DNA of 64,000 bases from a virus (IMGVR_UViG_2974613666_000001:1-64000); one strand, 5' to 3'; counted from the stretch's first letter, positions 7,348-61,742 are shown. The notes: generated by a model not told the origin, from the sequence alone. Program-made: numbers and translations.

Positions 7348-8757
7348 ATGCAAGTTTTTAATATAGCCACGCTTTTCAACAACCTGAATCATTACGTCGC
7401 AGCGCGATCGCCCCTAGAGTTTGATGAGGGTAACGAGTTATTATCTAGCGTTGAAAAGCTTACAGAGTTAGCTATCCAAGGTTATGAACAACCAATTAGA
7501 GACATACTTCAGACTAGATATGCTGGTAAAATATCTGGTTTTAACCGGATTACAGTAGGTGAGAAGAGTGTGAGTGGTGAGTTCTATGATATGTACTCGC
7601 CTTTCCGCACCACTCGCAACACATTTTATATTTCTCCCACAAGAATTGATATTAATGTGATTGGTGGGAGTATGCCAGTTTACTCTGAAGTAGACTTCGC
7701 CGCAGCCGTAAGCAAAACCTGTGGTGATGGGAAAAAACCATGTAAGGTTAAGCGTGGATCAACAGAGTATTTCCGTTGTGTACCTAAAACTTGGAAACGT
7801 GCTGATGAAAAAGCAGCTTTAAAGGGTGCTATTAAGGAAGAAACCAAACGAGCTAAATCAACAGGTAGCTCTAAGCCGTCACCTAAAGAAGCCAAAGTAA
7901 TCGAAGGGATTATTGCTAAGAGAATTGAAGCACAGCAGGAAGGTACTCGGAAGTCTAAAAATAAATATGGGGTTAAGCCAGACGCTACGGCTAAGAAACA
8001 GGCTAAACCAGAGCAGAGATCATTGTTGGAGGGTATGTTCCCACAGTCGCGTAATGTTCCAGGTGCTGATAAGTTGAATGATGCTTTGGGTGAGATTAAT
8101 TCTAGACCTAGCAAAGTAGCCGAGTTAGCAGGTAAGCAAAGCACCAAGCGCAAAAAAGAGCGCAAAGGTAAATCTGATAAAGTTACTGACCTGTTTCAGA
8201 GAAAACTTGAGGAAGGCGATATTGTAGGGGCGATCGACCAAAGTCTACTTTTAGCTGATCAAGGTAAGAAAATAGCTAAAGAAGGCTTAGATAATATTCG
8301 CCGTAATCAGCAGGAAATAGATCAGGAGGTTGAAGACGCTTTAAAACGGTTCCCTAAGTTAGGTGATGATAAACCCGCAACACCCACACCTGATATTAAA
8401 GAACAAATAAATAACTCATTCAAAACCAAAGGCGAAAGGCTAGTTAATCAATCTCTGAACATACTTCTAGACAGGGGCAAGTTTAATCTCAATGACCCCT
8501 CTCAGTTAAAAATACTGGACGACGCAAGAGCTAAGGTTGAGGAACACGCAGAAGCTACGAAGTCCTATTTAGACAAGATTAAGGGTGTTGAAGGTTTAGC
8601 TGCTGAGTCTAGGAGAGAAAAGAAACAAAAGAGACTAGATGTTATCAATTCAGTCTTAAAGCAGTACGATGAGTCGGCAAAACCCAGTAAAGATAAGCAG
8701 AACTTATCTAACTACACCAAATCATCAGAAACTATAAACAGGGTAGCCGAAAGCTAA
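7348..8757 (+). CDS. LFxNL-leader family protein 1 (putative head-packaged protein)
   Basis: IATLFNNLNHY leader, shared N-domain, YSEVDF, Cys knuckle CGDGKKPC..C, Lys-rich C-terminus. Confidence 0.75.
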   Translation: MQVFNIATLFNNLNHYVAARSPLEFDEGNELLSSVEKLTELAIQGYEQPIRDILQTRYAGKISGFNRITVGEKSVSGEFYDMYSPFRTTRNTFYISPTRIDINVIGGSMPVYSEVDFAAAVSKTCGDGKKPCKVKRGSTEYFRCVPKTWKRADEKAALKGAIKEETKRAKSTGSSKPSPKEAKVIEGIIAKRIEAQQEGTRKSKNKYGVKPDATAKKQAKPEQRSLLEGMFPQSRNVPGADKLNDALGEINSRPSKVAELAGKQSTKRKKERKGKSDKVTDLFQRKLEEGDIVGAIDQSLLLADQGKKIAKEGLDNIRRNQQEIDQEVEDALKRFPKLGDDKPATPTPDIKEQINNSFKTKGERLVNQSLNILLDRGKFNLNDPSQLKILDDARAKVEEHAEATKSYLDKIKGVEGLAAESRREKKQKRLDVINSVLKQYDESAKPSKDKQNLSNYTKSSETINRVAES

Positions 8758-8875
8758 AATTCCATTTGTTGCTGTTGTCATATCTTTTATTAGTTGTACT
8801 GATTATTTACAAGGTAGACGGTGAAAACTCCTAGCCCATAAAAGACTAGGAGTTTGATTCACTTAATTATGGGCT

Positions 8876-9647
8876 TTAACGCTTCTCTGGTAGTGTTGGC
8901 TTGATACCAAAAAATGTACAGTAACGTTCTACTGCTTCTATAGGCTCAATGTCTTGGTTATCGATTAAAGAGCAGATTGCATTCTCAGCAGCGTCTATTT
9001 TCTTCAGACATTTAGCTGTCAAGTTATCACGGGATTTATTGCGTTCACAGCCTAACTTAGCCTCTAGGGCTACTGCTTCCATACCAAACACGCTTAAATA
9101 CATCATGTTAGTAGCTCTCGCATAAACCCATTTTCTTGTAGTTATCAGACACGTTAGGGTGACGGAGTAGGTAATCTTTGATTGCATCTGTAAGCTCTCG
9201 TCTTGTGCCAATTCCTTTACTCCTAATGTCATCCCATAGCTTTTGTAACTTTTCTTGTGCTTCTAATGCTTCAGAGGTTAAGGCTTTAAACTCACCATTT
9301 ATAATCCTCATCAGCGCATCAGTAGCCCAAAGAGCGAAGTCGTCAGACAACCATATTGCTAGGTGTATAGCTACTTTAAAATGAACCCAAGTACCTTGTA
9401 AGTTCTTATCGTTACCACCTTCGATACTAATCGTGGCCGGTCTTCCGATCAGAAGTGCGGTAGAAACGCTACTAGCAAAGGATTTAGAAGATTTTAGTTT
9501 CCAATAGTTAGACCAAGTTTTCCCGTTAACCTTACACATTGCCGTAGCATTCACCCAACCTTTAGGGATTAAGTGGCCAGCAATCATTGTGTCTTCAGAA
9601 GTCTGATTGATTTGGATTCCATCGAAATTGTGTGCAATAATAGTCAT
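8876..9647 (-). pseudogene. KilA-N domain protein with a 1-nt frameshift near 9131
   Basis: WVNATAMCK...GTWVHFKVAIHLAIW (KilA-N); reading continues as KWVYARATN... in the overlapping frame after aagaaaatgg. Confidence 0.8.
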
Positions 9648-9955: not shown

Positions 9956-11368
9956 ATGGTACTATCTGAAGCTTTACGCAGAGAAATAGCATCAGCCGAG
10001 CAAGATCCGAAATATATTTTATTCGACGGTGTACCGCAAACACCTGATGATACCCTGCGGTTTTTACTTGGTGGTGACTTTGATAAGTATGATTTAATCC
10101 TCAAAGACTCCAAAGCTAAAGCACTTCTAGAAGTCAGGGACAGAAACGTAAGTTGCCGTGAGTGGTATGTTGATCCAGCATCACAGTCACGCAAGGATAG
10201 AAAAGCTGCTGACGTTGTAAAAAATATTCTGCTAGGCTTTGACTTCGATCAAATGTGCAGTGACTTGAACTCCAACTCACTGTTGAAGGGTAATGCTTTC
10301 ATAGAGTTGAAGTGGGGTATAGATGGGCAAACCACATATATAGAAGATGCGATCGCCAAGCCTAACCACAGATTTAGGTTTGTGTTGCATAAAGGTGATG
10401 GTAATAAAGGCGCAAACGGCGAACCTATTGGGATTTTTAAAGGGTATCAGGTAAGGGTTCTATCACAGGGTAACTTTTATTTAGGTGCTGAAGTGCCTGA
10501 TAAAAGGATATTATGTCACGCTTACGAAAGACGATCTGATAATCCTTGGGGTATTGGCTTGGGGCGTGTTCTTTACTGGATGGCTGTAATCTTCAAAAAA
10601 GAACTGTGGAAACAGCGCATGATTTTCCTAGACAAACACGCACAGCCCACAGCACTTGGTAAAGCCCCACAGTCTGAAACTCAGGTTACTGATGTAGCAC
10701 AACGTAATGAGTTTCGTGAAGCAATGGAACGTATTCTTGCTGGTAAGTCAGGAGTGTTACCCCCTGGTTGGGAGCTAGACTTTTTACAGCCCTCTAGTTT
10801 AGGGTCTGATCTATTCCAAAGTGCGATCGACGCTATCAACGAAGAGATGTCGATGCTTGTGTTGGGTGAAACTTTATCAATGAGTTTACCCGGTGGTGGT
10901 AGCCGTGCTGCTGCTCAAACTCATGCTGAAGGTAGTAGGGTTTATCTTGCTAAGTATGACTCAGATAGACTATCAACAGGGGCTTTGAGGGAATTAGCTA
11001 AATGGATTACTGAGCTAAATGTTGAGGGTGCAACTCCTCCACAAATCTGGCGCAAGTTCCCTGAGTTTGATGAAACCGAAGACCCAGCAAATCGCATTAG
11101 CAGAGATAGCCAGCTTAACTCCTTGGGCTACAAAATATCACCTGAAAAAGTACAGGAAGTTTATGGAGATGGTTACATCGATTTGGAAGAAGCTAAAGCA
11201 CAGCAGGAAGCTGAAAACCCACCTGCCCCCAATGCTTTCAATATCGGATTTAGCGAGATTGATCCTGTTAACCACGAGTATCTGACTGCAAAAGCTATGG
11301 CATTTCAGCGTAGCATGAGTAAAAAGCTTATTTTACCCAATAAACGTTTACTGGTTCCATCTAGGTAG
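9956..11368 (+). CDS. Portal protein, Mu gp29/DUF935 family
   Basis: DNPWGIGLGRVLYW, FLDKHAQP, INEEMSMLVLGETLS, GSRAAAQTH motifs. Confidence 0.9.
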   Translation: MVLSEALRREIASAEQDPKYILFDGVPQTPDDTLRFLLGGDFDKYDLILKDSKAKALLEVRDRNVSCREWYVDPASQSRKDRKAADVVKNILLGFDFDQMCSDLNSNSLLKGNAFIELKWGIDGQTTYIEDAIAKPNHRFRFVLHKGDGNKGANGEPIGIFKGYQVRVLSQGNFYLGAEVPDKRILCHAYERRSDNPWGIGLGRVLYWMAVIFKKELWKQRMIFLDKHAQPTALGKAPQSETQVTDVAQRNEFREAMERILAGKSGVLPPGWELDFLQPSSLGSDLFQSAIDAINEEMSMLVLGETLSMSLPGGGSRAAAQTHAEGSRVYLAKYDSDRLSTGALRELAKWITELNVEGATPPQIWRKFPEFDETEDPANRISRDSQLNSLGYKISPEKVQEVYGDGYIDLEEAKAQQEAENPPAPNAFNIGFSEIDPVNHEYLTAKAMAFQRSMSKKLILPNKRLLVPSR

Positions 11369-11744: not shown

Positions 11745-11748
11745 TTAA

Positions 11749-11949
11749 ATGAATGAGTACGTAAAAAAGTTTTTAGAAGAGTGCCATGCTGATGGAGAAC
11801 CATTAAGTAAAATACCTTTTTTATTGCAGGGTTTTGTGAAAGCTCTAGCAGCAATTCAGGATAGTGGTGAACTATATCGTAATTCTCAAGATCCAGAATG
11901 GTTACAAGAACAGATAAAGGAATCTGGGTTGAAATTCAAAGACAAGTAA
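11749..11949 (+). CDS. Small partner (putative immunity) protein, paralog of 21339..21536
   Basis: EYVKKFLEE...DG..L...FL...F....A....SGEL aligns with EYIKAIRED...NG..I...FI...F....A....SKEL. Confidence 0.65.
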   Translation: MNEYVKKFLEECHADGEPLSKIPFLLQGFVKALAAIQDSGELYRNSQDPEWLQEQIKESGLKFKDK

Positions 11950-12004
11950 TATACAACCACATAACCAACAGGTTATACTTGAGACATATCACAAAAAGCC
12001 ATAT

Positions 12005-13498
12005 ATGCCTCATCCTACACAAACACTTATTACCGACAACCTAGACTTCCGCAGGTCGATCGCCTCTGCATTCGATCCATCAACCGATTACTCAGAAGTA
12101 CCACAGGCTGAGATTGATGGAACGTTTGAGGCGATCGTCTTTCAATTGCTATCTCATTATCAGACTTCCCAAGCATCCCCTGAGTTTACAGAATCTAAAA
12201 CAAACCAATTACCTGAAACAGGTGATACAGTTACTTGGAAATGGGGTAAAGGTCGGGGTGTAGGAACTGTTACCAAAGTCTACACTGAACCCACGACTAT
12301 TACTATTGAGAAATCTAAAATAACTCGCAATGGTACAGAAGAAAACCCAGCTTTACTGATTGCACAGGATAACGGATCAAAAGTTTTGAAACTTGCATCT
12401 GAAGTTACTGTTACAAGAGATGCTGATCCTTCGGACACAGCGATCGCATTTAGCTTTGATTTTGATGGTAGATATGACGATATTGATCTGACCCCTACCA
12501 AGGGAATGGTGCAAGCAGCTAAGAAAGCACTTGATTATATAAACGAAGGGTATGGTGGTGATGGTTTAGAGGACTCAACTATACGATGGGTACGGAAAGT
12601 TGCCAAAGGTGAGCCATTATCGATTGAGAAAGCCAAGAAAGGGTACAAGTTTTTTCAACGTCATAATTATTTCAAGCAGAACAAAAATAAAGGAGATACA
12701 AACCCTAATTCACCTGCGCCTTGGTACGTAGCAAGAATGGCTTGGTTTGGTGACGATGGGGAAAGATTCTTTAACCGTGTTTGGCGACAGATTAAAGCTG
12801 CTGATTCTGAGTTTAACGAACCAACTCCTTACGGTAATGCTCCTGAATTTGGAGAATTTGAACCAGAATTTGGCTGTGTAATTCATAAAGTAATCCCCTG
12901 GAATGGTTTAAAGTTAGGTGTAGAATATCGCCCCGGTGACATCAGATTTAAAGGAAGTAAGCACGAGCGCAAACTTAAATCTGGTTACGGACACATCAGA
13001 GGTTACAAAGGCAATGACAAGGAAGCGCTAGACTGCTATCTTGCACCAGGATTTTTTGATGGTTCACTAATAACCAAAAATATGTTTCTGGTTGAACAGT
13101 TAAAAGCCGATACAGGTGAGTTTGATGAGGAGAAGATTCTAATAGGCTATAACGATATTGATCACGCCAAAGAATGCTATCTTACAGAGATGTCACCTCA
13201 ACACTTTGGTAGCATTAAGCTAATTAGTTTAGTTGAAATAGATAAATACCACAAACGTCACTGCAATAAAAACTTAGAGAAACTAATTAAGAGTTTGAGC
13301 GATCGCTTGTCGCAGTTAGAATTTGAGCAACGATCGTTTGAAGAAGTACCTAAGTCACGGCGTAAAGCCAGAAAAGTCAATATTGCTGAAGATTTAGATG
13401 TAGATAACAGTGATGAGGCTGTATTTGAAGCAGCCAAGAAAATGTTTGAAGCCGCTAGAGAAGCAGAAGAACTACAAGGTGAGGTAGGTAATGTTTGA
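12005..13498 (+). CDS. Polyvalent head-associated protein: DUF2945 Tudor-like, helical head-morphogenesis-associated domain, inorganic-pyrophosphatase-like domain
   Basis: GDTVTWKWG..G.V..VY...ITRNG.EENPA; PTKGM...FFQRH...VARMAWFGDDG; YGHIRGYKGNDKEALDCY...EFDEEKILIGY. Confidence 0.75.
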   Translation: MPHPTQTLITDNLDFRRSIASAFDPSTDYSEVPQAEIDGTFEAIVFQLLSHYQTSQASPEFTESKTNQLPETGDTVTWKWGKGRGVGTVTKVYTEPTTITIEKSKITRNGTEENPALLIAQDNGSKVLKLASEVTVTRDADPSDTAIAFSFDFDGRYDDIDLTPTKGMVQAAKKALDYINEGYGGDGLEDSTIRWVRKVAKGEPLSIEKAKKGYKFFQRHNYFKQNKNKGDTNPNSPAPWYVARMAWFGDDGERFFNRVWRQIKAADSEFNEPTPYGNAPEFGEFEPEFGCVIHKVIPWNGLKLGVEYRPGDIRFKGSKHERKLKSGYGHIRGYKGNDKEALDCYLAPGFFDGSLITKNMFLVEQLKADTGEFDEEKILIGYNDIDHAKECYLTEMSPQHFGSIKLISLVEIDKYHKRHCNKNLEKLIKSLSDRLSQLEFEQRSFEEVPKSRRKARKVNIAEDLDVDNSDEAVFEAAKKMFEAAREAEELQGEVGNV

Positions 13499-13658
13499 GC
13501 TATTTAGTAATTTACGTGGTTATATTCAAGAGTCAAGAGGTGATGAGGCTGCTGAACTAATCTCACCTGTGAGTAAACTTAGCCAACTCAAACCGAGTGG
13601 TTGCGGTTGTCACACCTGTAAACAATCAAAAGGGAAATCTCTAAAGTGTCATTGCTAA
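13491..13658 (+). CDS. 55-aa stand-alone LFxNL leader protein with Cys/His-rich tail
   Basis: MFELFSNLRGYIQESRGDEAAELISPVSKLSQLKPSGCGCHTCKQSKGKSLKCHC; GAGGT RBS; overlaps both neighbours. Confidence 0.7.
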   Translation: MFELFSNLRGYIQESRGDEAAELISPVSKLSQLKPSGCGCHTCKQSKGKSLKCHC

Positions 13659-15523
13659 CATTATTTACCAACCTAGAACATAAAATACAGGGTGATACTT
13701 TAGATTTTCATGAATATCCCCTTGAGTTTCAAGAATTACTAGACAGCTTCACTATTCTGAACTTTCAAGAAACTGGCTTAATCCTGAAGGATTTAATTGA
13801 ATCAGTCTACACTACAGGTATTCACAGCCTGGATGATGTGGATGAGAAAGATGGTGTGATTACAGGTGTATTTCAAGATAAATCAGATTCAAAAAAACCA
13901 CGTAAATTTAAATTCACTATTGATGAAAATAAGATAGTTTATAAAGAAATATTAGATCCTGAGTTTAGTGAGCTAGATGTAGAATTTAGTGATTTCTTAA
14001 ACGGCATTGTAGACTTCAAAGCCCCTAAAACACCCCCAGCAGCTAAAAAAGGGGAGAAAACGAAAGCGGATAAGTTAGGACGGGTTCAAGTTTGTGATCC
14101 CTCAAAATCCTTCGTATGCGGTGCTTCTTGCCAGAAAAACGGACGTAACTGCGCTTCTAAAGTGTCAACACCAGAGCAGAAACAGCAGTATCGGCAGGTT
14201 GTAGAGCGATCGCAGCAGATGAAGTCTGAGGACTTGGGGCAGTATCTGACTAGCAAAAAAACACCCAACAAGAAGGAGAAGGTTTTATATAAAAAAGAAC
14301 TAGAAGCTACGGACGAGACTCCCGCACCATCTGTAAAGGAAGTAACCACACCGAAACCTGAAAAAAGAGCTTCCAACTTGTCACAGTACATGACTACTAA
14401 AGGGAGCGTAGCAACATCTAAAACACGTTTAACTAAAAGTGATAGTAGCTTAGGTGCTACATTAAAAAAAGTCTTTGATAGATTTAAGGATAGGGTCGGT
14501 AAGGTCATAGACTCATCGGCTGCTAAAGTCGAACAAATGTTGTTTGGTGGTACTTCTGATAAACCTGAGAAGGAGAAGCCCAGTAGTCCCCCTAAAATCA
14601 ATAAACCTGCTGTACAGCCTGAAAAACCTAAAGAGTACCTTGAGATTAAGCCTAAGAACCCGCAGATAAAAGTTAACAGTAATGAGTTACAGGAAAAACG
14701 TGAGTCTTTAGTAGCTAAGTTTGGGGAAAAATTGGTAACTGATGCTGAAAACAATGTTTCAAAAATTATAAATGATAAGGACACTAATGTTTATATTCGT
14801 GTTGGCTCATCTGAGACGCTAGGTTTTATATTAGGCGATAGGTTTAAACCCGCTCATGAGTTAGGTGGTAGACCAGGGGGTGCTGATGATTATCTAGCTA
14901 AACGAGCAAGAGTAGAGGAAAAAACTTTAGGATATTCTAAGGACACAGAGCCGAGCGATCGCCCTATATACGGTTACTTGGGAGGGTCTGATTTAAAGGG
15001 GACTGCACACCAAGACGCTGGTAAGGCTTATGGGTCTATTTCCGTTAAGTTAAAGCCAGATATTAAAGATAGGGCAACGTTTACGGGTGCTGATTCATTT
15101 AAATCCGGTATTGCCTCTGAGATTAGGCCAGGGGAAACACCACCACCCCCAAGTGCCGCTTCTTTAGTACCATCTACGAGGGGTGGTAAAGATATAACTG
15201 AGGAAAAGCGTAGAAATGATAAGAAATACTTAGACCATGCGGCTAAGTCAGAAAATATTGATGATCTGGTTTCTGGTTTAGCCTCATCCGGTAACAGATA
15301 TATGGAAGCTCAGTTACATGGTAAAGTAGGCTTAACAGATATTGCAGAGCTACACTTCAATCCTGAAAGCGATCGTGACTCGCCTAACGAGAGTATATTT
15401 GATATTGCCGAGCAGCATAATATAAGTGTGTTTGTGAGCGGTGAGAAAGTCACTAGAGATTTTTTAAAGCGAGCAGCCCCAGAAACTACAGAACAACTAA
15501 AAGAAAATGAAAGTAATAAATAG
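13646..15523 (+). CDS. LFxNL-leader family protein with DUF3626-like C-terminal domain
   Basis: LLTLFTNL leader, shared domain, CDPSKSFVCGASC..C knuckle; RPIYGYL..YG..RATFTGADS..YMEAQLHG. Confidence 0.75.
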   Translation: MSLLTLFTNLEHKIQGDTLDFHEYPLEFQELLDSFTILNFQETGLILKDLIESVYTTGIHSLDDVDEKDGVITGVFQDKSDSKKPRKFKFTIDENKIVYKEILDPEFSELDVEFSDFLNGIVDFKAPKTPPAAKKGEKTKADKLGRVQVCDPSKSFVCGASCQKNGRNCASKVSTPEQKQQYRQVVERSQQMKSEDLGQYLTSKKTPNKKEKVLYKKELEATDETPAPSVKEVTTPKPEKRASNLSQYMTTKGSVATSKTRLTKSDSSLGATLKKVFDRFKDRVGKVIDSSAAKVEQMLFGGTSDKPEKEKPSSPPKINKPAVQPEKPKEYLEIKPKNPQIKVNSNELQEKRESLVAKFGEKLVTDAENNVSKIINDKDTNVYIRVGSSETLGFILGDRFKPAHELGGRPGGADDYLAKRARVEEKTLGYSKDTEPSDRPIYGYLGGSDLKGTAHQDAGKAYGSISVKLKPDIKDRATFTGADSFKSGIASEIRPGETPPPPSAASLVPSTRGGKDITEEKRRNDKKYLDHAAKSENIDDLVSGLASSGNRYMEAQLHGKVGLTDIAELHFNPESDRDSPNESIFDIAEQHNISVFVSGEKVTRDFLKRAAPETTEQLKENESNK

Positions 15524-15842
15524 TGACAGATTTGACGATGTGGAGTTTTTACCAGAAGGGGAATTTAAAATTATAGGTACAGCCGGAGGTGTGGATTTGT
15601 ACCTAGTTGGCAAAGATGAGGATGGTGAGGAAATAGTTGCTAAGGAACTTCCCAACTCAGAGTTATTTGCTATACCAATGTACGAACTCTTATCTCATTC
15701 TCAGGACAAAATCGTGCTGTATGATCAGCCATCTACAGCCACTGAAATGAGTGATGCGGATAGGGAATCTGCCAATGAATCAATAAGTAAATTACAGGAT
15801 GCTATAAAAAAGGCTACTAAGAAACCTAAGAAAGATAGTTGA
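15507..15842 (+). CDS. Small acidic partner (putative immunity) protein
   Basis: 111 aa, acidic, overlaps the stop of the upstream effector-like gene. Confidence 0.6.
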   Translation: MKVINSDRFDDVEFLPEGEFKIIGTAGGVDLYLVGKDEDGEEIVAKELPNSELFAIPMYELLSHSQDKIVLYDQPSTATEMSDADRESANESISKLQDAIKKATKKPKKDS

Positions 15843-15917: not shown

Positions 15918-16874
15918 ATGTATCTTTCAATACTGTTTCGTAACCTCCAAATATACAGACCTACCAGCACAGATTTAGACTTTTGTGAGTTTATCAAGCC
16001 ACTGGACGATTATTTTTACAGCTTCCTAGAATTTGTTGCACCTGCAGTAGTGGATAAAGACGGGGCAACTGCTGGTAGGTGGCGAGATGCAAATGGTAAG
16101 TTTATCACTATGCCCGACATCTTACAGGAGGATGTGCGTGGTGGTATCAAAAAAATGGTGCAAGATGGTAATAGAAACACTGCACGGAGATTGCTACAGG
16201 ATATCAGTAAGTCTAAATTACTCCAACTGACTGGTAAAGATGCCTATAAAGCTACTGTTGAGAAAATAAAGAGGAAGTATAGGGGTAAATCTTTTGAACT
16301 GGGCTTGATATCAGCTTTGCAGATTGAAAGTAGGGTAAAAAAAAAGGCTATTTCTGATAAGCTTATTGAATTACAAAAAATACTGAAGGAGACTAAGGAA
16401 GACCCTAAAGCCGAACCAGCTAACCAGATAAAGCTAAAGTTGGCAAACGTTGAGATTGAGACAGTTAAACTGAACAAGCTAGATATATTTGATAATTTAG
16501 ACAGAGACAGTAAAGACCTGAAAGTTGATGATAAGAGAGCTATTGAAGTTATTGACGAGTACAAGAAACAGGTTAAGAGGTACAATTCTATAGCTGAGAA
16601 ATTGAAAAACTCAGATAACATAAGCGCTTCAGAGTATGACGACTTATTTAATGAGCGTGAGAGTCTATGGAAAAGTATGGTGGGTAGCAAATCATCACCG
16701 GGGACAATAGGTAAAGCCAGAAAACTCAAGAATAAATTTCTGAGTGAACCAATTTTAGATGAGTTTATAGAAGCAATCGCTAGTGTTTCAAAGGAATCCC
16801 CTGGTGGTGTGAGGTTAGAGATCCCAAAAAATATGGATGCTATTAAAGCGAAGATAGCACCCGATCCTTGTTAA
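15918..16874 (+). CDS. LFxNL-leader family protein, short leader variant with RDANGKF motif
   Basis: LSILFRNL, DFCEF, GRWRDANGKF (RDxxG[RK]F motif of phage head-associated proteins), helical Lys-rich body. Confidence 0.65.
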   Translation: MYLSILFRNLQIYRPTSTDLDFCEFIKPLDDYFYSFLEFVAPAVVDKDGATAGRWRDANGKFITMPDILQEDVRGGIKKMVQDGNRNTARRLLQDISKSKLLQLTGKDAYKATVEKIKRKYRGKSFELGLISALQIESRVKKKAISDKLIELQKILKETKEDPKAEPANQIKLKLANVEIETVKLNKLDIFDNLDRDSKDLKVDDKRAIEVIDEYKKQVKRYNSIAEKLKNSDNISASEYDDLFNERESLWKSMVGSKSSPGTIGKARKLKNKFLSEPILDEFIEAIASVSKESPGGVRLEIPKNMDAIKAKIAPDPC

Positions 16875-16891
16875 TTATTTGGTTGCAGGTC

Positions 16892-17155
16892 TTAAGTGTA
16901 GGCTAGACTATACCTTTCAGAATTTAGCTGTAGCTTCTGGTAAAGCATCGAACGCACGTCTTCATCCATATCGTCAAGCTGATCTACACCTAGAGATACT
17001 GTTTCTAGTTCATCTAGATCGCCGTAAACAGGATAGTCAAATCTTAGTCCGCATTCACGCCCATCTATTGTACTGTAGTAGATCCTACCTTTGATCATTA
17101 AAGAGAGGATTATCTTTAATGCTTCCCCATCATGCCTTACCCAAAAATGACTCAT
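16892..17155 (-). CDS. Small partner (putative immunity) protein
   Basis: 87 aa, ATGA-coupled to the upstream HNH-like gene. Confidence 0.6.
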   Translation of the reverse strand: MSHFWVRHDGEALKIILSLMIKGRIYYSTIDGRECGLRFDYPVYGDLDELETVSLGVDQLDDMDEDVRSMLYQKLQLNSERYSLAYT

Positions 17156-19056
17156 ATAAGACTACCTTTCAACTTGTCCTGAAGCGTGATCATACTGTAC
17201 TGCATATTTGCTTTCCTGTTACTGTCTGCTAATTTGTTTAACTTATCAATCGCATCATCCCCATAAGCAGATTCTAAGTGTTCCACAGCTTGTCTTGCAT
17301 TATACTTGTGGATCTGTCCGTTCATGGTCGGGCGAGAATCACTGTAATCCTCACTCTCAGTGTAACCTTTATCCAGACTAAAGAAGCCGTTGGAATCTTC
17401 GTATAGTTTTAAAGCTTTGCTAATACCAATATCAGCTACAGCTTTAGCCTCTATGAGCTTTGCATTGTAGCTTTTTATCTCTGCTTCCAGATCACTAGAT
17501 TCTTTTATAAAGAGTAGTCCGTCCCCCTTCAGCAGCCTAATGGCATCTGCATTATCTATTAATGACTGTTTAAATTTTTGGGACTCCTTTTTTGCTAGTT
17601 TTTTGAGATCACCTTGCAAAGCATCCACGTCTATATCTCCAGTAGAAGTAATAGGGAAGAGAGTCACTATCTGACCAGAGCTAGACGTAATTCGTAATGC
17701 TTTGAGGTGATTAAGCACGTCCTTATTACCTAACCAACCATTATCACTATTAAATTTTATCTTATCTGTTATTTTTTCTGAATCTTCTATCTCACGTGAC
17801 CATCTTTCAACTTCTTGCTTGATACTAATCACCTTCTTATGCAGATTCAGTTTATCCTCTAGTTTATCCTTTTCTTTGATAAACTCTCCCCTCGCGTCCT
17901 TGGCATACTTGTATTTCAACTTCTCATCATCAGTTAACCCACTCTTCTGTATCATCCTGCCATTCTTATCGGGTTTCTGATAGTTTTTAACATCTGCATC
18001 TAAGACGCTTATCTGATTATTAAGCACCCCGATTTGATCAGTCAGATCCTTCTCATACTCCTTTGGTGTCTTTATCCTTTTCTCTAATTCAATGATCTCG
18101 GCTTCATACCTTGGAATGTCACGCTTTGCCTTTGCTACTAATTCAGGAACTTTATCAGCTATCTTTTGTCTCAGAAACTTATCATCTTCACCATCAAACC
18201 TGTAGTAATGTAAGTGTGTAGCAGCATCGTCTCCACTATGCGCCCCATCCATCAGTTCAATAAATTGAGTATTTGAGCCGTGTTTAGCTGAGTTCCAATA
18301 TTCGGGAATCACTTTCAGACCTAGCTTACTGGTGTTTCTGTCCCAAATTAACTGTATTGAGTTTGGCTTGACTCTACCATTCTCATCCACATACACATTA
18401 TTAAATATGTGATGATGCTCAATACCGTCTGATAGCGATTTTTTAACTTCTAACCCATCTATGTCAATGTAATCATTAGGGTTGCGGGTTAGCTGTTCTG
18501 ATGACATAGCCCTGGATATCGACCGTAAAATAAGATCCTCAGCTACTTTAGTCTCTCCCGTGTCAAGTAATTTTTTTACAGTAGGCGCTCCGAAAATAGA
18601 AGCAAGTCTTTGTTTTGGTTTACCTTCTGAATCCTTGGCGAATACAGTATCCTTGAAAACTAGCTGTTCACGACTTGTGTAAAGTGACTCCATGACTTTT
18701 ACCCTTTCCTCAGCCACAACCAGATCCGGATCTTTTAACAGATCTGCATCAGAATTTTTGAGCAAATCTTTAAGTTTGGTTAATCGTTCTGGTTTAAGTC
18801 CTGACTTGGCTAATTGACCAGCCTCAATCTCTAGGAGCGATCGCCTGACGTTACCATTTAAGTGATATTCCAGATCGTATATAGCCTTTTCGTGTTCAGC
18901 TAGTCGAAATGGATCGGCATCTGGGTTCTGCTTTAATTTTTCGTAGTCAGTGTTTATATCACTTAGACGTGTTCTAAGATTTTTAACTACTGATTGCTGT
19001 GCTGTTATGTGTTTCTTAGCTAATTCTGATAAATCCTGTGATTCTAAGCAAGCCAT
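17152..19056 (-). CDS. Coiled-coil protein with internal HNH/AHH-like nuclease motif
   Basis: GIEHHHIF...GSNTQFIEL..AH......HLH between coiled coils. Confidence 0.55.
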   Translation of the reverse strand: MACLESQDLSELAKKHITAQQSVVKNLRTRLSDINTDYEKLKQNPDADPFRLAEHEKAIYDLEYHLNGNVRRSLLEIEAGQLAKSGLKPERLTKLKDLLKNSDADLLKDPDLVVAEERVKVMESLYTSREQLVFKDTVFAKDSEGKPKQRLASIFGAPTVKKLLDTGETKVAEDLILRSISRAMSSEQLTRNPNDYIDIDGLEVKKSLSDGIEHHHIFNNVYVDENGRVKPNSIQLIWDRNTSKLGLKVIPEYWNSAKHGSNTQFIELMDGAHSGDDAATHLHYYRFDGEDDKFLRQKIADKVPELVAKAKRDIPRYEAEIIELEKRIKTPKEYEKDLTDQIGVLNNQISVLDADVKNYQKPDKNGRMIQKSGLTDDEKLKYKYAKDARGEFIKEKDKLEDKLNLHKKVISIKQEVERWSREIEDSEKITDKIKFNSDNGWLGNKDVLNHLKALRITSSSGQIVTLFPITSTGDIDVDALQGDLKKLAKKESQKFKQSLIDNADAIRLLKGDGLLFIKESSDLEAEIKSYNAKLIEAKAVADIGISKALKLYEDSNGFFSLDKGYTESEDYSDSRPTMNGQIHKYNARQAVEHLESAYGDDAIDKLNKLADSNRKANMQYSMITLQDKLKGSLI

Positions 19057-21338: not shown

Positions 21339-21536
21339 ATGACAGTCGTGGAAAAGTTTAAGAAAGAAGCTAGAGAGTATATAAAAGCAATAAGAGAGGA
21401 CTTGGAGGTAAACGGTACTGATATAGATTACTTCTTATTCATCTGTAAGAGTTTTCAGAATACTAAAGCGCTGATGTATAGCAGTAAAGAGCTTAGAAAA
21501 GCAGACCTTACTGAGTTCTTTAAAACGTTTTACTAA
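21339..21536 (+). CDS. Small partner (putative immunity) protein
   Basis: Follows 19682..21298; paralog of 11749..11949. Confidence 0.65.
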   Translation: MTVVEKFKKEAREYIKAIREDLEVNGTDIDYFLFICKSFQNTKALMYSSKELRKADLTEFFKTFY

Positions 21537-48012: not shown

Positions 48013-48066
48013 ATATAATAATAAAGTGTAAATACTATGTTATTATATATTAAGGAGGTAAGAAAA

Positions 48067-55227: not shown

Positions 55228-56481
55228 ATGCAAATATCCCAAAACTGTATAGACCTTATAAAGGAGTTTGAAGGTTTCCGATCCAGTGCTTATCTATGCC
55301 CGGCTGGTGTACCTACTATTGGCTACGGTACTACGATTTATCCCAACGGCGCAAAGGTGGCTACGCAGGATACAATCACACGGCAAGAAGCAGAAGATTT
55401 TCTAGAGGCTTCTGTCCTGCAATTTTCCAAGGCTGTAAATAGCGAAGTAAATGTAAAACTAAATCAAAACCAGTTTGATGCTTTGGTATCGTTTGTGTAT
55501 AACGTTGGTATTGGTGCTTTTAAAAGTAGCACCATGTTGAGACTGATCAACGCCAATAAAATATCTGAAGCGGTTGATGAGTTTCCCAAGTGGGATAAAG
55601 CAACTGTAAATGGCAAGAAAGTATCACTAACAGGATTAGTACGTCGTAGAGAAGCAGAACGGAAACTATTTAACACTAGCGCTGTAACTGCTCAACCTTT
55701 AACTGCTCAACCTGAGTCGGTTCAGGAATCAGTAACATGGCTTAAAGAGTATACCGAGAAGGGTAAAAAGGTTGTAGTTACTTATGGCGGTTCGACTATC
55801 TGTGAGATTCTGCAATTTGAGTATTCACCACCGGAAGATTACTTACGAGAGTTACTAAAGACTTACCCGAACGCAAATAATTCTCATATAGCAACACCTG
55901 GGGAAAGTGTGCCGAAGGGCGATCGTGTTTTCATTATGGATCGCTCTTGCCTAGATTCTAGAAGTGAATTAGCCCAAAATGTTGTCAAGTCAGCCAAGAG
56001 TTTTTTAAGGTTGACAAAAACCAAGAGTAAAGACCAGTTTGGCTGTTATATACTCAAGCTAGATTACTTTAAGAATGGCGTGCTGGTGGATTCTTTAAAC
56101 ACTTGCTCAGGCATTGCTAGTAGGCAATATTTTAGAAAAGGAGTAGATAGTGTAGCTAGAAGTCTAGAACCTTTACCTGAAGGGTCATGGCGAATAGAGA
56201 ATATTAAGTGGGCAGGTGGTAGAGGTAACTGGAATCAGGTATTTAACTCCGGTGTAGGCGCTGTAAGCGTACCCTTAACTTATATCTCACCGGGAAGTAC
56301 CCGCCGAAGTGCAATAGAGGTGCATATTGACAATAACCGCAAGTCAGCCCCAGGTACAGCAGGTTGTGTAGGTGTCTACAATCGTGCTGATATGGAGAGG
56401 TTTCTAGGCTGGTTGTATGACACTGATCCTAGAGACTTTTACTGTGATTGGGGGCTGGGTTCTTGTCCGAAGATTGAGTAG
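55228..56481 (+). CDS. Endolysin: GH24 lysozyme plus C-terminal L,D-transpeptidase-like (DUF2778/Tlde1-like) domain
   Basis: IKEFEG..AY.CPAGVPTIGYG...GLVRRR.AE; PLPEG.W...IEVH.D.....GTAGCV. Confidence 0.85.
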   Translation: MQISQNCIDLIKEFEGFRSSAYLCPAGVPTIGYGTTIYPNGAKVATQDTITRQEAEDFLEASVLQFSKAVNSEVNVKLNQNQFDALVSFVYNVGIGAFKSSTMLRLINANKISEAVDEFPKWDKATVNGKKVSLTGLVRRREAERKLFNTSAVTAQPLTAQPESVQESVTWLKEYTEKGKKVVVTYGGSTICEILQFEYSPPEDYLRELLKTYPNANNSHIATPGESVPKGDRVFIMDRSCLDSRSELAQNVVKSAKSFLRLTKTKSKDQFGCYILKLDYFKNGVLVDSLNTCSGIASRQYFRKGVDSVARSLEPLPEGSWRIENIKWAGGRGNWNQVFNSGVGAVSVPLTYISPGSTRRSAIEVHIDNNRKSAPGTAGCVGVYNRADMERFLGWLYDTDPRDFYCDWGLGSCPKIE

Positions 56482-56535: not shown

Positions 56536-57126
56536 TCAAAATAGATCCAACTGCTTATTCTGTCCAACTCTAGACAACTTAGGATTTATAGACCATAAAT
56601 TAATCGAGTAACGATCGCTCGCGCATCTTATAGCTGCGTGGGGATTTTTGCAATTGAAAAGTACCACCGCACCAGAGGGTAGTTCAAAGGTTTCACGTTC
56701 TGGTGTAAAATCCTGCTTCCCGTAGCAATATCCTGGGTACATTGCTTGATATCCCCACAAGGTTGATTTGCTGGTTAGATTAATGCTCACTGCTGGGTAG
56801 TCTGCATAAGTTGCATCTCTATGCCAGTTTATCCCCACAGAACCATAAGCGACCAAGCCTAATGCAGATTTTGGTTGATAATCCAAACCAGTGTGCTGCA
56901 TCGCCCGGTCAAAAATAGTGCTGCACCAATCCCATAACCGAGGTAACTTGTGAGCTTTATTAAATACTGGTTCCTTGTCCAATGTGGGTTGAGATTTTAA
57001 CCAAAAGCGTTGTCTACCTTTTGCATAACTACTGACATCCCTTTGTAGTAGTTGCTGGTGTTGGTCAAGATATTCGCGGATCTGTTGCTGTTGGGTACTT
57101 GAGATAACTTTAATGATTTGTAGCAT
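56536..57126 (-). CDS. AlkB-like 2OG-Fe(II) dioxygenase
   Basis: INWHRD (HxD), PHAA, RYSINLW. Confidence 0.8.
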   Translation of the reverse strand: MLQIIKVISSTQQQQIREYLDQHQQLLQRDVSSYAKGRQRFWLKSQPTLDKEPVFNKAHKLPRLWDWCSTIFDRAMQHTGLDYQPKSALGLVAYGSVGINWHRDATYADYPAVSINLTSKSTLWGYQAMYPGYCYGKQDFTPERETFELPSGAVVLFNCKNPHAAIRCASDRYSINLWSINPKLSRVGQNKQLDLF

Positions 57127-57209: not shown

Positions 57210-60200
57210 ATGTCGCTGTCTCACCTGTTCCACAACCTACGCGAGTACACAATTGGTAAAAATGGAATTGAAACCGCCAACCTACTCACACCATCAAAAA
57301 CGATCGCAGCTATCCGCAAATGTGAAGAAAACCAACTAGAGTTTGCCGAGTTCATGGAAAGTGAGCAGGATTACAAGCGATTGGGCTTGGAGCTTAAATC
57401 CGTACTTGAGAATGTCTATGGTGACACTATTGATGGTTTTGAGGGTGTGAAGGTTAGCAATGGCGAGATTAAAGGGTTTTTCTTCAGTAATTTATCACCT
57501 ACTCTAGTTAAGAAATTCCAGTTTACAGCGTCGCCGCAGGGAATTTACTTTGAGCTAATTAACGCCAATGAAATTAATAATGCTAATGTAAGTTTCCAGG
57601 AAGCTGGCTTATATGCTAATGATGTTGTAGATTTTGCTACGGCTGCAGGTGATAAAAAGAAGCGAGTAATTAAGAATTGCTCAGAGGGAAGTAAAACTTG
57701 TCACGGTGCGGACGGTAAAACCAAATACTGCATCAATAAGAATTTCAAGTGTGCTACAGAACGAAAAGCCACACCAGCCGAGCGCAAATCCAGAACTGTA
57801 AAACCATCACCAGAGGACGCAGCTAAGTTAGAGAAAATTGTACAGCGTGGGGAAGTTGCAGCCGAGAAATTCACCAAAGCACGAGTAAGTAAGGATAAGT
57901 TAGCCAAACTTGATCAGCAATTGCGCGATGAATTAAGCACAGGTGGTGAGGTTGACGTACTGAAGTTGCAACGGAAGCTGAAGTACCCCGCAACTACATA
58001 TGGTAATGACCCTCTAAATAATCCAGTAAATCGGCTACTGGCTGATATGCGGACTAAGGGAGAACTTGAGGCTAATGAGTCAGGTGATAAGGTTAAGTTA
58101 TCTAAATCTGATAAATCATCAGAAACTATAAACAGTAAAACTGCTAAAAACCAAGAATCAGCTAAAGGAAGTGATAAGATAGCTGATACAGGTAAAACAA
58201 AAGGTAAAGCAGTGTTAGAGTCAAAATCTAAGACAATAAAAGAAGCTGAGATAGCCCACAAAAAAATATCCGATGATATCGCAGCTAAAACTAGAAAGTT
58301 CGGAATAGATGAGATATTCAAAGACGATTACCTTTTCAACCCTACTGGCATGGAGGTATTGATCAGAAAGGATGCTAAGTTTATTCCAGCGAAAGTAGTT
58401 TCCTTACAAACTAGCTACAAAGACAACTTAAATAAGGCTACACCTACAGGTCGGTTGGTTGTGGAGACTCAAGACGGTACTAGAGCGTTGAGAATGAGTA
58501 ACGGAATATTAGATAGTAAAAAAGTAAGTGCTGATGATCTTAAAGAGATGAATGCACTTGCTAAACAACAAAGTGAAGCTATGGTAACGCTGAAGAAATC
58601 TGATGAAGACTACTACTATACTAAAAACCTAAACGCACTAGACACCCTAAAAACCCAACAAGTAGAACTACTAGATAAAATCGCCGCCGCAAAAACTCCA
58701 GCCGAGAGACGATCACTCAATAAGGAATTGCAAGCTACCCGTAAAGAAATGGATGCTTTGAAGGCAGGGGACAATAAAAAAGAAGAATGGCGAAAACAAT
58801 CTGAACAAAGTTATGACAAAGCTTTCAATGGTGAAAAGTTCTCCTACGACACCAAGGAAGGTAAAATTATAGCCAAGTATGTACAGGGTAGAGATGGTGT
58901 AAATTACCTAAAGATGTACAAAGATGACAGTGACAACCCGTTCCAAAGTCCAATAATGAATAGATCCGAGTTATCTAACTTTATTGACGGTCTTCATAAT
59001 CCTAAAATTCAGGATGCAAGCGGATTTAACTCAACACCAGTGTTTGATAAGAAAGGCACTCGTAAAGAAATGGAAGATTTGAAGGTTGGGGGCGATCGTG
59101 GTGGGGAAGGCAAGGAAGTAGCCAAAAAAGTACCACAATCTGAAAAGAGCTATGAACAGATAGCCCAAGAAAGAGAAGGTGCTGACTTGACTTACAGACA
59201 GGCAAAAGATGCTCCTAAAGGGGGGGCTGTAAACCAGAATTATGGTAATTCGCAAGCAACTATTGCTGATGCACTAAACCGTAAAGTATTTGGCGTTGGT
59301 AATGGTGAAAAAATCTACAACTGGGCTAAAAAGCATGATGTGGATTTATTCAAATTGCAAATGGATGCTAATAACGATTTTTCTATATCAACAGACGGTA
59401 AAAGGTCAGCAGACAACAGAGCGCTGATGGATGCCGTTGTGATGGGTAAGCCTTTCAAGAAAACTGCGCCCACAGTAAAAACCAAACCCGAACCCGAACC
59501 CGAACCCGTAGCGGAAACCAAGCCTCGTAAAGTTGGTAACTCAGAAGTAGGGTCAGTTTACGATGGAGATAAGAGGCTAGAACATCACGTCTCAATCAAC
59601 GGTAAATCAGAGCATCTTTTCAGTGTGCTAGGTAAAGATAAGTACGGTGAGTTCAAAGATCAATTAGCAGAACTCCAAAAGAAAAATAACTACGACTTAT
59701 CAAAGTACGAACCGGAACTAGATAAGTTGGTAGATGGTTTTATAGCTGATAAGCAAAATCCAGAACCAGTAGTCAGGGGTACTGCTAACACTTCTAAAGC
59801 AGGAGTTCCAACTTACACACGCGATCGCACCCCCGCAGAAGTGGATGAGTACAACCAGCACTTAGATAAGGTTGCTAAGGGGCTGAAAGCTGTTAAGGGT
59901 GAGGTTGCCTTAGCTTTCAGAACCAGAGGTGGCGGTACAGTTACTAAATCTGTAAAAGCTACTGTCTATGGTGAGAGTGGGCTAGCCTACGCGCCTAAAA
60001 CAGATGCAATGGGTGAGGAAGGATTTAGCACACTTAGCGCACTTGTTCACGCTGCATCAGGTTTGAAAATAATAGAAGTTTCTACGGCTAAGGAAGCTAA
60101 ACGGCTGTCCGGACTGTTGGCTGATAGTGGTATTGACTTCAGTAATCCCGATTTAACTACAGATGCGGACGTAGCTTATAAACTACGAGCAATTGTGAAA

Positions 60201-61742
60201 GGTACAGGTATTGCGCCTAATAAGTTACCTAAGCAGTTCACACCTCCCGATAGCTGGGGGAAAGGTGCTGATGTTAAATCTGAAGCTGGTAAGGAAGTTA
60301 AAACACAGGCATCTAAAACAAGCACTGGAGGCAAGCCAACAGTAGCTACTCTACAAAAGCAATATGCCGATGTGGGATTAACATTTGAAAAAGATCAGGA
60401 TAACAACAGATATCCGTACAAAGTTACTAATGCTGATGGGAAGTTTAACAGGTATAAGACTCTATCTGAGGCTAGGGAAGCATTACCAAAATTAGCTGAA
60501 ACAGAGAAGACTAGAGCATCTAAAACAAGTGTGACTAGCAGCAAATACGAAGTGGAAGATTTTGAGGCAGCAGAGGGAGTTGCTAAATTGGAGAGTGATC
60601 TTAGGATGGCGGATGGTATGCTAAAAGCCATTAAAGAAACTATCACAGCACTGGACGATGAATTAAAGGATGTTAAGGGTAGTAAGCGTAACAGCTATAC
60701 CGTAAGTGGGTTATCCGGTAAGAAAAAACTCACTAAGGAACAAATGATATCCTCCATATTAGATAAACAAGAGGATTATAAAAATATGATTCAGCAAGCG
60801 GAGGATAGGAGGAAAAAAACTAAAGATGGTTTGAGTAAAGTACCAGAAGATGCAACTAAAGCATACAACTACCTATACAAGAGAGTAGACCCAGATAGTA
60901 TAACCTCTGAATATGGCTTAATAGAAGCTGGTAAGAAACGCGGTTTTAAAGTAGGTAAAAGGTTTGGCAACTACATCATTGACCAAAACAAATACGATAG
61001 TGATTACAAACTACCTACAAAACTAGGGTCTGATTTGGAAGAAGCCGTTTACGGACTAAACACAGCTATTGCGAGAGGTGAATTTGTAAAATCCTTAAAC
61101 ACTTCACCGGACATCGAAGTATCTATGCAGGGCGAGAGTTATACGGTTTTAAATAAGAAGACAGGTGAGGAGCAAAGATTTGAGTTCTATAGAGGATTTG
61201 AGGATGTCAAAAAAGCTGTAGACTCTTTCTCAAACACTCAAAATAAACAAAACAGCACCGTAAGCAACATCAAAGGTTTAGAAGAGCGAAACAAACAGAA
61301 ACTAGCGAAGTCAAGTGCATCGGAAGCGCGATCGCTCGTAGAAAACCTAACTAACGCTCAGGACGTACTCAAAAAACTAGACGAGTATGAACTGGTGGAA
61401 GGTTCTAAAAGGAATCGTTGGTTTAGTCCAGACCCCAAGGATGATGTTATGGACGATGAAGACTACAACGACGCTGTAAAATCAGCCCAAAATGAACTCA
61501 AGGACACCTACACCCGCTTGTTACCATCAACCAAAATCAAAGGGCTACAACCAGATTTACTTGGTGGTGACATGACTGCGATCGTTTCTCTCCCTGGTGG
61601 TGGTACTGAGGTGTGGAATACTTCTAAGGTCAAACCTGCTAAGGATGTTCCTAGCTTGCAGGATAAGGAAAGTGGGTTGTATGTCTATCCCACGTTGCCT
61701 GTGCAGGAGAAGGTTGAGAGTAAACCCAAAAAACGAACCTAG
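57210..61742 (+). CDS. Giant LFxNL-leader family polyvalent protein (1510 aa)
   Basis: LSHLFHNLREY leader, shared domain, FAEF/FQE/VDF, Cys knuckle, many Lys-rich modules. Confidence 0.8.
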   Translation: MSLSHLFHNLREYTIGKNGIETANLLTPSKTIAAIRKCEENQLEFAEFMESEQDYKRLGLELKSVLENVYGDTIDGFEGVKVSNGEIKGFFFSNLSPTLVKKFQFTASPQGIYFELINANEINNANVSFQEAGLYANDVVDFATAAGDKKKRVIKNCSEGSKTCHGADGKTKYCINKNFKCATERKATPAERKSRTVKPSPEDAAKLEKIVQRGEVAAEKFTKARVSKDKLAKLDQQLRDELSTGGEVDVLKLQRKLKYPATTYGNDPLNNPVNRLLADMRTKGELEANESGDKVKLSKSDKSSETINSKTAKNQESAKGSDKIADTGKTKGKAVLESKSKTIKEAEIAHKKISDDIAAKTRKFGIDEIFKDDYLFNPTGMEVLIRKDAKFIPAKVVSLQTSYKDNLNKATPTGRLVVETQDGTRALRMSNGILDSKKVSADDLKEMNALAKQQSEAMVTLKKSDEDYYYTKNLNALDTLKTQQVELLDKIAAAKTPAERRSLNKELQATRKEMDALKAGDNKKEEWRKQSEQSYDKAFNGEKFSYDTKEGKIIAKYVQGRDGVNYLKMYKDDSDNPFQSPIMNRSELSNFIDGLHNPKIQDASGFNSTPVFDKKGTRKEMEDLKVGGDRGGEGKEVAKKVPQSEKSYEQIAQEREGADLTYRQAKDAPKGGAVNQNYGNSQATIADALNRKVFGVGNGEKIYNWAKKHDVDLFKLQMDANNDFSISTDGKRSADNRALMDAVVMGKPFKKTAPTVKTKPEPEPEPVAETKPRKVGNSEVGSVYDGDKRLEHHVSINGKSEHLFSVLGKDKYGEFKDQLAELQKKNNYDLSKYEPELDKLVDGFIADKQNPEPVVRGTANTSKAGVPTYTRDRTPAEVDEYNQHLDKVAKGLKAVKGEVALAFRTRGGGTVTKSVKATVYGESGLAYAPKTDAMGEEGFSTLSALVHAASGLKIIEVSTAKEAKRLSGLLADSGIDFSNPDLTTDADVAYKLRAIVKGTGIAPNKLPKQFTPPDSWGKGADVKSEAGKEVKTQASKTSTGGKPTVATLQKQYADVGLTFEKDQDNNRYPYKVTNADGKFNRYKTLSEAREALPKLAETEKTRASKTSVTSSKYEVEDFEAAEGVAKLESDLRMADGMLKAIKETITALDDELKDVKGSKRNSYTVSGLSGKKKLTKEQMISSILDKQEDYKNMIQQAEDRRKKTKDGLSKVPEDATKAYNYLYKRVDPDSITSEYGLIEAGKKRGFKVGKRFGNYIIDQNKYDSDYKLPTKLGSDLEEAVYGLNTAIARGEFVKSLNTSPDIEVSMQGESYTVLNKKTGEEQRFEFYRGFEDVKKAVDSFSNTQNKQNSTVSNIKGLEERNKQKLAKSSASEARSLVENLTNAQDVLKKLDEYELVEGSKRNRWFSPDPKDDVMDDEDYNDAVKSAQNELKDTYTRLLPSTKIKGLQPDLLGGDMTAIVSLPGGGTEVWNTSKVKPAKDVPSLQDKESGLYVYPTLPVQEKVESKPKKRT
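59784..59882 (+). repeat. 99-bp perfect direct repeat, copy A (contains HIP1)
   Basis: Identical to 62095-62193. Confidence 0.95.

Follow-up and report, generated by a model that had tools for sequence, protein, structure and literature searches.

The window considered here, IMGVR_UViG_2974613666_000001:1-64000, is the first 64 kb (64,000 nucleotides) of a 145.4-kb virus record from a Nodularia siphophage (Ravarandavirus), and its portal region is 99% identical to that of Nodularia phage vB_NspS-kac65v162 (Ravarandavirus; host Nodularia spumigena, Baltic Sea). Between positions 7348 and 61742 it contains six plus-strand open reading frames (ORFs) whose products all carry the motif LFxNL at residues 5-12, and which we refer to as LF genes and LF proteins. 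An earlier examination of the DNA (the sequence-only reading) had proposed that six genes begin with this motif and that they encode a new family of capsid-delivered effectors; all six ORFs, with the motif near their starts, were recovered in our analysis. In a GenBank relative of this phage they are annotated merely as hypothetical proteins. Four of the six lie between the genes for the portal (9956-11368) and the head maturation protease/scaffold (22855-24567), as the sequence-only reading had stated for most of them, and LF genes occupy the same place in two related loci, L003 and L007.

LF protein 1 (7348-8757, 469 aa, LFNNL) consists of the leader, an acidic core, a stretch with three Cys and a familyless, Lys-rich, coiled C-terminus. 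A 55-aa mini ORF (13491-13658, LFSNL), an annotated gene in the 99% identical record MK605244, encodes the leader and a Cys/His-rich tail without the core. LF protein 2 (13646-15523, 625 aa, LFTNL) has a full N-terminal module (N-module) and ends in a DUF3626 (SopF-family) domain (aa 430-598, E 4.5e-9). LF protein 3 (15918-16874, 318 aa, LFRNL) carries the leader and h-D-F motifs, followed by a body that belongs to no enzyme family. LF protein 4 (19682-21298, 538 aa, LFWNL) has a full N-module and a C-terminal H-D-x-x-H string. LF protein 5 (57210-61742, 1510 aa, LFHNL) combines a full N-module with a long Lys-rich body, of which the C-terminal 652 aa constitute what we call cassette 1. Of the C-termini described from the sequence alone, the DUF3626-like domain, the H-D-x-x-H string and the Lys-rich modules are thus as reported, but the ParB-like region of LF protein 4 (aa ~300-390) is weak (Pfam E 0.09; PHROG 1033 E 0.004).

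By chance, about 3.5 LF.NL matches would be expected over the six frames of the window, and far fewer than one within the first dozen residues of genes. All six genic matches are N-terminal, and the remaining six-frame matches fall in short, non-genic frames. The codons of the motif vary synonymously between copies, and selection has therefore acted on the peptide. Two LF-like matches at 62007 and 65026 were rejected as genes, being out-of-frame pieces of a 99-bp repeat.

The N-module extends over ~170 aa and aligns in the products of 7348, 13646, 19682 and 57210 (own-genome hidden Markov model (HMM), E 1e-66 to 1e-70), in agreement with the claim that four of the proteins continue with the same domain; the 15918 and 13491 products share only the leader region (E 3e-4 and 0.04, respectively). 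All four module proteins contain the F-x-E ... h-[DE]-F cluster that had been pointed out. A Cys knuckle had also been assigned to all four, and it is complete in the 13646, 19682 and 57210 products, but the 7348 product has just three Cys. The four full members are acidic over their first 125 residues, with isoelectric points (pI) of 4.3-5.1, and basic thereafter (pI 9.0-9.7).

Small co-oriented ORFs lie behind four of the five large LF genes and include 15507-15842, 16879-17094, 21339-21536 and 61765-61992. The first, on the plus strand, encodes an acidic protein (111 aa, pI 4.5), overlaps the end of the LF protein 2 gene and is a candidate partner, as is the third (plus strand, 65 aa), which begins 40 nt past the LF protein 4 gene. 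Pfam scans of 15507-15842 and 61765-61992 and a PHROG scan of 15507-15842 found no family. Elsewhere in the head module, 11749-11949, after the portal gene, encodes an acidic protein of ~66-71 aa that by eye resembles the product of a small ORF (L002:2855-3070) in another locus. The latter directly follows an LF gene, and the protein may represent a recurring small partner.

To search for relatives, a profile of the four N-modules was scored against 1.84 billion representative proteins, matching 144 protein clusters at E ≤ 1e-3 and 73 at E ≤ 1e-10. Column statistics resolve the module into five parts: (1) a leader, M-x-[IL]-x-x-L-F-x-N-L-x-x-[HY]; (2) two or three copies of h-[DEN]-F-[SA]-E; (3) the core, [LI]-K-x-[IL]-L-E-x-x-Y-x-D-G-I ... 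G-x-F-x-D ... K-[RK]-[FY]-x-F-x-I ... Y-x-L-x-N; (4) a second F-S-E followed by h-[ED]-F-A; and (5) a Lys-rich stretch containing four Cys, which are kept in 96 of 97 copies. Among 158 aligned copies of the domain, the leader columns are occupied in 63 (L 100%, F 95%, N 83%), all of them N-terminal; by leader pattern, 56 members are leader-bearing. AlphaFold2, given an alignment of 106 sequences, predicted the leader as a helix, the core as a helix plus a four-strand meander (predicted local distance difference test (pLDDT) 81-89) and the Cys region as small hairpins (pLDDT ~85), with an overall pLDDT of 69.5; with just four sequences the prediction was poor (pLDDT 44).

The N-module is undescribed in the libraries searched, in line with its proposed status as a new family. 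No model from Pfam (E ≤ 0.1, LPD families included), NCBIfam or PHROG covers the N-module, the core or the Cys knuckle, and a sequence profile search of the PDB with the N-module returned nothing below E 0.37. With the predicted structure, Foldseek found no match in the PDB at E ≤ 0.001, and a search of the ESM Atlas with the fold gave no usable match. Matches in BFVD were limited to Nodularia phages, Planktothrix phage PaV-LD and a few unnamed proteins. When two of the N-domains were compared with 50,697 phage records by tblastn, matches were confined to the Nodularia phage group, and a search for related loci with a single N-domain returned only the query's own contig.

The leader and the core are two separable parts of the N-terminal address. 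The leader is found only at true N-termini, and it occurs without the core on the 15918 and 13491 products. Conversely, leaderless cores follow Portal_Mu in P0081, P0093, P0095, P0117 and fragments; Phage_Mu_F in P0092 (L004), which belongs to a genuine Mu-like transposable phage; a protease-like N-terminal domain in P0098 and P0099 (recognized by eye from the sequence with no Pfam hit); and a TUDOR-InPase architecture in P0055. The core is also repeated two or three times in the giant proteins P0123, P0129 and P0151. The proposal of a constant N-terminus and a variable C-terminus therefore needs qualification: the C-termini do vary, but the N-terminus is a composite of leader and core that can come apart. 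Because the core also follows MuF and portal domains and recurs within giant proteins, it is not itself a substitute for MuF. By the fusion logic usually applied to effectors joined to MuF or portal proteins (PMC5512222, PMC9503650), the core would reside in the particle interior.

The leader plausibly replaces a covalent anchor, as the distribution of domains among relatives suggests. LF protein 3 has a body with 41% identity to the C-terminal half of a relative's protein whose N-terminal half is a phrog_24776 domain (L003:9350-10825; cf. L007:9314-9964). That domain was not found in the present genome, and on LF protein 3 the leader occupies its place, an exchange that supports the leader as an anchor replacement. 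The phrog_24776 genes of relatives start with M-x-[VI]-D-F-A, resembling the predicted mature end of the LF proteins, and the domain ends in a Cys-rich motif, H-C-x-Q-C-P ... C-D-C. We considered whether phrog_24776 is a hidden MuF domain and dropped the idea (hhalign probability 0.07%, no Pfam match). The related phages L003 and L007 have the same gene order (portal, LF plus ADP-ribosyltransferase (ART), InPase, LF plus ParB, LF, protease, capsid), with several leader-bearing genes between portal and protease.

The HMM search and tabulation of C-termini that had been suggested as a check also bore out their variability, with a vocabulary typical of effectors. Across 91 family members, the C-terminal domains comprise ART (7), ADPrib_exo_Tox (6), GNAT (6), InPase (3), DnaJ (3) and ParB_N (2), as well as ART-PolyVal, PARP, HipA-like kinase, PI3/PI4-kinase-like, esterase and DUF3626 domains. 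Close relatives keep the N-terminal part and swap the rest. Over aa 1-345 the 7348 protein matches three relatives at 76-90% identity, beyond which it is unrelated to them and three different tails are seen; the 19682 protein is 69% identical to P0013 over aa 1-256 and then unrelated; and the 13646 protein is 54% identical to P0014 over aa 1-200 and then diverges. The link between DUF3626 and SopF is supported by the library, and, going by work on SopF, DUF3626 may be catalytically an ADP-ribosyltransferase.

An orphan cassette, of the kind noticed in the sequence, is real and is exchanged in nature. Downstream of the LF protein 5 gene lies cassette 2 (plus strand, 62095-64000 and on to genome position 65022), a leaderless paralogue of the C-terminal half of LF protein 5. 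Its first 119 bp (62095-62213) are 97.5% identical to a plus-strand stretch within the LF protein 5 gene (59784-59902), and we refer to this shared sequence as the recombination handle. The cassette is bracketed by a 99-bp repeat (61996-62094, plus strand) that is 100% identical to genome positions 65015-65113. Cassette 2 gives only a sub-threshold hint of a GH-E nuclease (E 6e-4), and it is followed by an IS607-type element. We compared this region with contigs of four metagenome runs from four studies. In contigs of run X5, position 59783 is joined to 62095 at full flank depth, and in contigs of runs X6 and X2, position 59930 is joined to 62239. Both joints are in frame and yield a 1834-1835-aa protein in which aa 1-858 or 1-907 of LF protein 5 are followed by cassette 2 instead of cassette 1. 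Since in-frame joints occur in contigs from three studies, wild populations carry both tandem and swapped forms of the LF protein 5 gene, in proportions that are only rough when taken from assembled contigs.

The IS607-type element includes one of four TnpB (OrfB_IS605/Cas12f-like) genes in this phage genome, located at 3748-4971, 42049-43236, 48037-49320 and genome positions 65080-67070 (L011 8110-10070). The last is accompanied by an IS607-type MerR-resolvase TnpA and lies directly behind the orphan cassette, with the bracketing repeat as the 99 bp upstream.

Motifs of the form [DEN]-F-[SAGTDNE]-E, present in the N-module, are concentrated in the head module. They occur 23 times in the proteome of ~42,600 residues, and 15 of these occurrences are in seven head-module proteins (four LF proteins, the portal, a TUDOR-InPase protein and the protease/scaffold) that account for 11% of residues (binomial P 8e-10). 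When the LF proteins are left out, 10 of 18 occurrences fall in 3.9% of residues (P 3e-10). The Mu-type portal (plus strand, Pfam E 1e-70) has a C-terminal G-F-S-E whose Phe (F432) is invariant in seven portals, fused or unfused. The Hva1_TUDOR plus InPase protein (12005-13498, plus strand), an architecture that relatives fuse to the core domain, has four [DEN]F.E motifs, and the protease/scaffold (plus strand; phrog_976, E 6e-55) has five, including an I-E-F-S-E in its scaffold part that is kept in two relatives. An F-x-E-type site is present in 48 of the 56 leader-bearing members, mostly at residues 17-24, ~10 residues past the leader, against a background of 0.10 per 70 aa. Hydrophobic-x-Glu is the cut-site type of the prohead proteases of T4 and phiKZ. 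Because the motif is common to the portal, the protease/scaffold and the TUDOR-InPase protein and matches this type, we read the F-x-E motifs as most likely cut sites of the head maturation protease, by analogy with T4 and phiKZ, at which the leader and the acidic core would be removed. A literature search on cut sites of the Mu protease gave nothing useful.

A carrier of the module is a virion protein. ORF048 of Aphanizomenon phage CL131 (1811 aa) has a single core (domain E 1e-12) along with four perfect C-x-x-G-K-x-C-G-x-x-C-I-x5-C knuckles. It had the highest score in liquid chromatography-tandem mass spectrometry of CsCl-purified CL131 particles, with 105 peptides and 54.6% coverage (PMC6293099, Table S5). 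The CL131 portal gene (L006 8800-12981) encodes 1393 aa, well beyond a plain portal; its product, in which the core domain was not found, is likewise abundant in virions (59 peptides).

Together, the fusions to portal, MuF and protease and the presence of a distant carrier in purified virions support the association with the head or virion that the sequence-only reading had proposed, and we consider it probable that the LF proteins are phage-particle cargo addressed by their N-module. A location of the window's LF proteins in the head is suggested by the same fusions. We infer that the six LF proteins are packaged, that the leader has a binding partner, that cleavage occurs at F-x-E and that the products are injected, according to the following scheme. 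During assembly, the ~13-residue amphipathic leader would tether the protein to an internal component of the prohead, be it the portal, the protease/scaffold or the capsid interior; this non-covalent link would take over the task of the direct fusions to portal, MuF or protease seen in relatives. The acidic pro-region would consist of the helix and four-strand core flanked by h-[DEN]-F-x-E motifs, at which the head protease would cut to remove leader and acidic core. The mature, basic protein would start near h-[DE]-F-A and comprise the Lys-rich 4-Cys (zinc) knuckle and a swappable body, such as a DUF3626/SopF-like ADP-ribosyltransferase, a ParB-like domain or a Lys-rich coil; it would remain with the DNA in the particle and accompany it into the next host. 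The C-terminal bodies are exchanged by recombination at conserved handles. This complete grammar, in which LFxNL leader, F-x-E sites, acidic pro-domain and zinc knuckle load any body into the capsid for release by the protease, injection and cassette shuffling, is a possibility that we advance more tentatively than packaging itself, and we hold with the same reserve its corollary that Mu-like cyanophages possess a portable, sequence-readable loading grammar that would replace covalent fusion to MuF or portal.

Several observations weigh against this interpretation. CL131 ORF048 is only distantly related, has no leader and is a giant protein whose gene adjoins that of the tape measure, such that a location in the tail is possible, and some family members are encoded among baseplate genes. 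Gene 57210 is 33 kb from the head module, beside a lysozyme gene. No enzyme domain is recognisable in three of the six LF proteins. An exhaustive structural search with the predicted module found nothing significant, the best matches being cystatin/latexin-like folds (Z 4.4). The F-x-E motif was defined partly from the same proteins in which it was counted, only 12 of 35 internal core copies have an F-x-E-type site within 70 aa upstream, and the motif could be a binding motif, which would fit the enrichment equally well.

Alternatively, the LF proteins could be structural internal-head or ejection proteins that condense DNA or form channels, as do the T7 core and P22 ejection proteins, and would then not be effectors directed at the host. 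The N-module they share would serve in assembly, and the Lys-rich bodies would do no more than bind DNA. This explanation, which overlaps with ours in that it too needs packaging, would account for the 7348, 15918 and 57210 products, whose bodies are only Lys-rich, coiled and basic and belong to no enzyme family, and for the great abundance of CL131 ORF048 in virions. Yet in relatives the same module precedes ART, GNAT, kinase, ParB, DnaJ and InPase domains, and neither C-terminal swapping among near-identical phages nor orphan cassettes would be expected for structural proteins. We therefore regard a purely structural role as rather unlikely.

It is also conceivable, but improbable in our judgement, that the LF proteins are not packaged and act late (or early) in the cytoplasm, for example as anti-defence enzymes in the producing cell, with the N-module serving in regulation, oligomerisation or binding of a host factor. 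The position of gene 57210 outside the head module and of some relatives among tail or baseplate genes would fit this reading. However, this explanation leaves unaccounted for the several independent contexts (portal, MuF and head protease) to which the core has been fused, the presence of ORF048 in virions, the F-x-E motif shared with portal and protease/scaffold, and the placement of four of the genes between portal and protease.

A third alternative places the proteins in the tail lumen, as cargo that would be loaded together with the tape-measure protein instead of entering the head. The gene for the giant carrier is directly upstream of the tape-measure gene in CL131 and in the relative L008, another family member lies among baseplate genes, and the tails in this Nodularia phage group are very long (795 nm for 2AV2, PMC6293099). 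The core, however, is fused to head-interior proteins (portal C-terminus, MuF, protease) and not to tail proteins, and the genes lie between portal and protease in the window, L003 and L007, making loading into the tail a very unlikely explanation.

Finally, although the LF genes share the genomic position and the constant-N, variable-C logic of MuF toxin genes, the idea that the N-module is a highly diverged MuF domain and the LF proteins ordinary MuF polymorphic toxins is essentially excluded, as PF04233 (MuF) has no match in the whole 145-kb genome at E ≤ 10 while controls respond, the 106-sequence family profile aligns to a PF04233-positive protein with a probability of 0.3% (hhalign), in P0092 a bona fide MuF domain (aa 55-171) is followed within the same polypeptide by the core (aa 254-386), and the predicted core is merely a helix and four-strand meander. 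The LF proteins are thus outside the MuF family, whose defining domain is absent, and the observation that no MuF gene is recognisable holds for the genome as a whole.

Other features of the surrounding region are as follows. The large terminase gene is on the minus strand (4952-6607) and the major capsid protein gene on the plus strand (25013-26005, from the annotation of MK605244). The TUDOR-InPase protein has a conserved N-terminal motif of its own, N-L-D-F-x-R ... D-G-x-F-E-A, that is common to L003, L007, P0055 and P0085 and may be a second type of address; its gene is 36 codons longer in the MK605244 annotation, pointing to an indel or frame difference near 11898-12005. The protease/scaffold contains an internal HTH_3-like stretch (aa 354-402), also present in L003, and ends in N-I-E-F (N-I-T-F in L007). 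Within the plus-strand head module, 17152-19056 is a familyless 634-aa gene on the minus strand, the first ~150 residues of whose product resemble, by eye, the start of a 593-aa protein encoded on the minus strand at the corresponding position of L003 (11227-13008). Just upstream of the LF protein 5 gene, 55228-56481 encodes a phage lysozyme fused to a weak YkuD (L,D-transpeptidase-like) domain and adjoins a 2OG-Fe(II) oxygenase gene (56536-57126, minus strand).

To our knowledge, beyond the capsid targeting sequence (CTS) proteins of T4 and fusions to MuF or portal, little is known about how tailed phages choose the proteins borne in their particles. Here, a short leader and a carrier domain that no library models mark a set of swappable proteins in phages of bloom-forming cyanobacteria. 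The fusions indicate the interior of the head, a motif held in common hints at how trimming would take place, and metagenome contigs show exchange in nature. If the proposed scheme is correct, injected phage effectors would be predictable from sequence, including those of uncultured phages, and the leader would be a candidate packaging tag. The scheme also bears on how cyanophages escape host defences in the Baltic Sea and in lakes.

The CTS proteins of T4 (IPI-III and Alt) have a leader that is removed by the prohead protease. Like them, the LF proteins are unrelated proteins that carry a short N-terminal peptide followed by a hydrophobic-x-Glu motif; their mature parts are basic, one body is of the ADP-ribosyltransferase type, and their genes lie among head genes. 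The two sets have no sequence similarity, loading and cutting of the LF proteins are proposed here by comparison, and the LF proteins add a ~75-residue acidic core and a 4-Cys knuckle between leader and body. Moreover, the window phage, a Mu-like siphophage, has a protease/scaffold of the phrog_976 type in place of a T4-type prohead core.

Polymorphic toxins of the MuF type have a constant, head-associated N-terminal part and a variable, toxin-like C-terminus, are encoded after the portal and have been proposed to be delivered with the DNA (Jamet et al. 2017, PMC5576092). The LF proteins resemble them in their constant N-terminus and variable C-terminus, in the position of their genes in the packaging/head module after the portal and in the delivery with DNA that we propose, but they lack the MuF domain and have a short leader and a different domain as their address. 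In addition, MuF toxin phages are temperate phages of Firmicutes, whereas the window phage appears lytic and infects filamentous cyanobacteria, and no immunity gene was identified beside the LF genes among the small downstream ORFs scanned.

The polyvalent proteins of phages and conjugative elements carry two to fifteen effector-type domains per polypeptide (Iyer et al. 2017, PMC5512222). Their vocabulary (ART, ParB, InPase, Hva1-TUDOR, GNAT and kinases) and their portal and MuF fusions recur here, and the giant relatives P0123, P0129, P0151 and CL131 ORF048, in which core and Cys knuckle recur, are true polyvalent proteins. The LF proteins of the window, in contrast, have a leader and a single body with at most one recognisable domain each, which is fewer than the strict definition of a polyvalent protein demands, and no zincin metallopeptidase was seen.

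Polymorphic toxins of the Rhs and CDI types keep orphan C-terminal cassettes. Cassette 2 is likewise a leaderless, promoter-less downstream cassette with a near-identical handle, by which the C-terminus is replaced through homologous recombination; the gene that receives it encodes a proposed phage virion protein, however, and not a secretion-system toxin, and no immunity gene is evident. By analogy, the LF proteins appear to work like the CTS proteins of T4 and the MuF- or portal-fused effectors.

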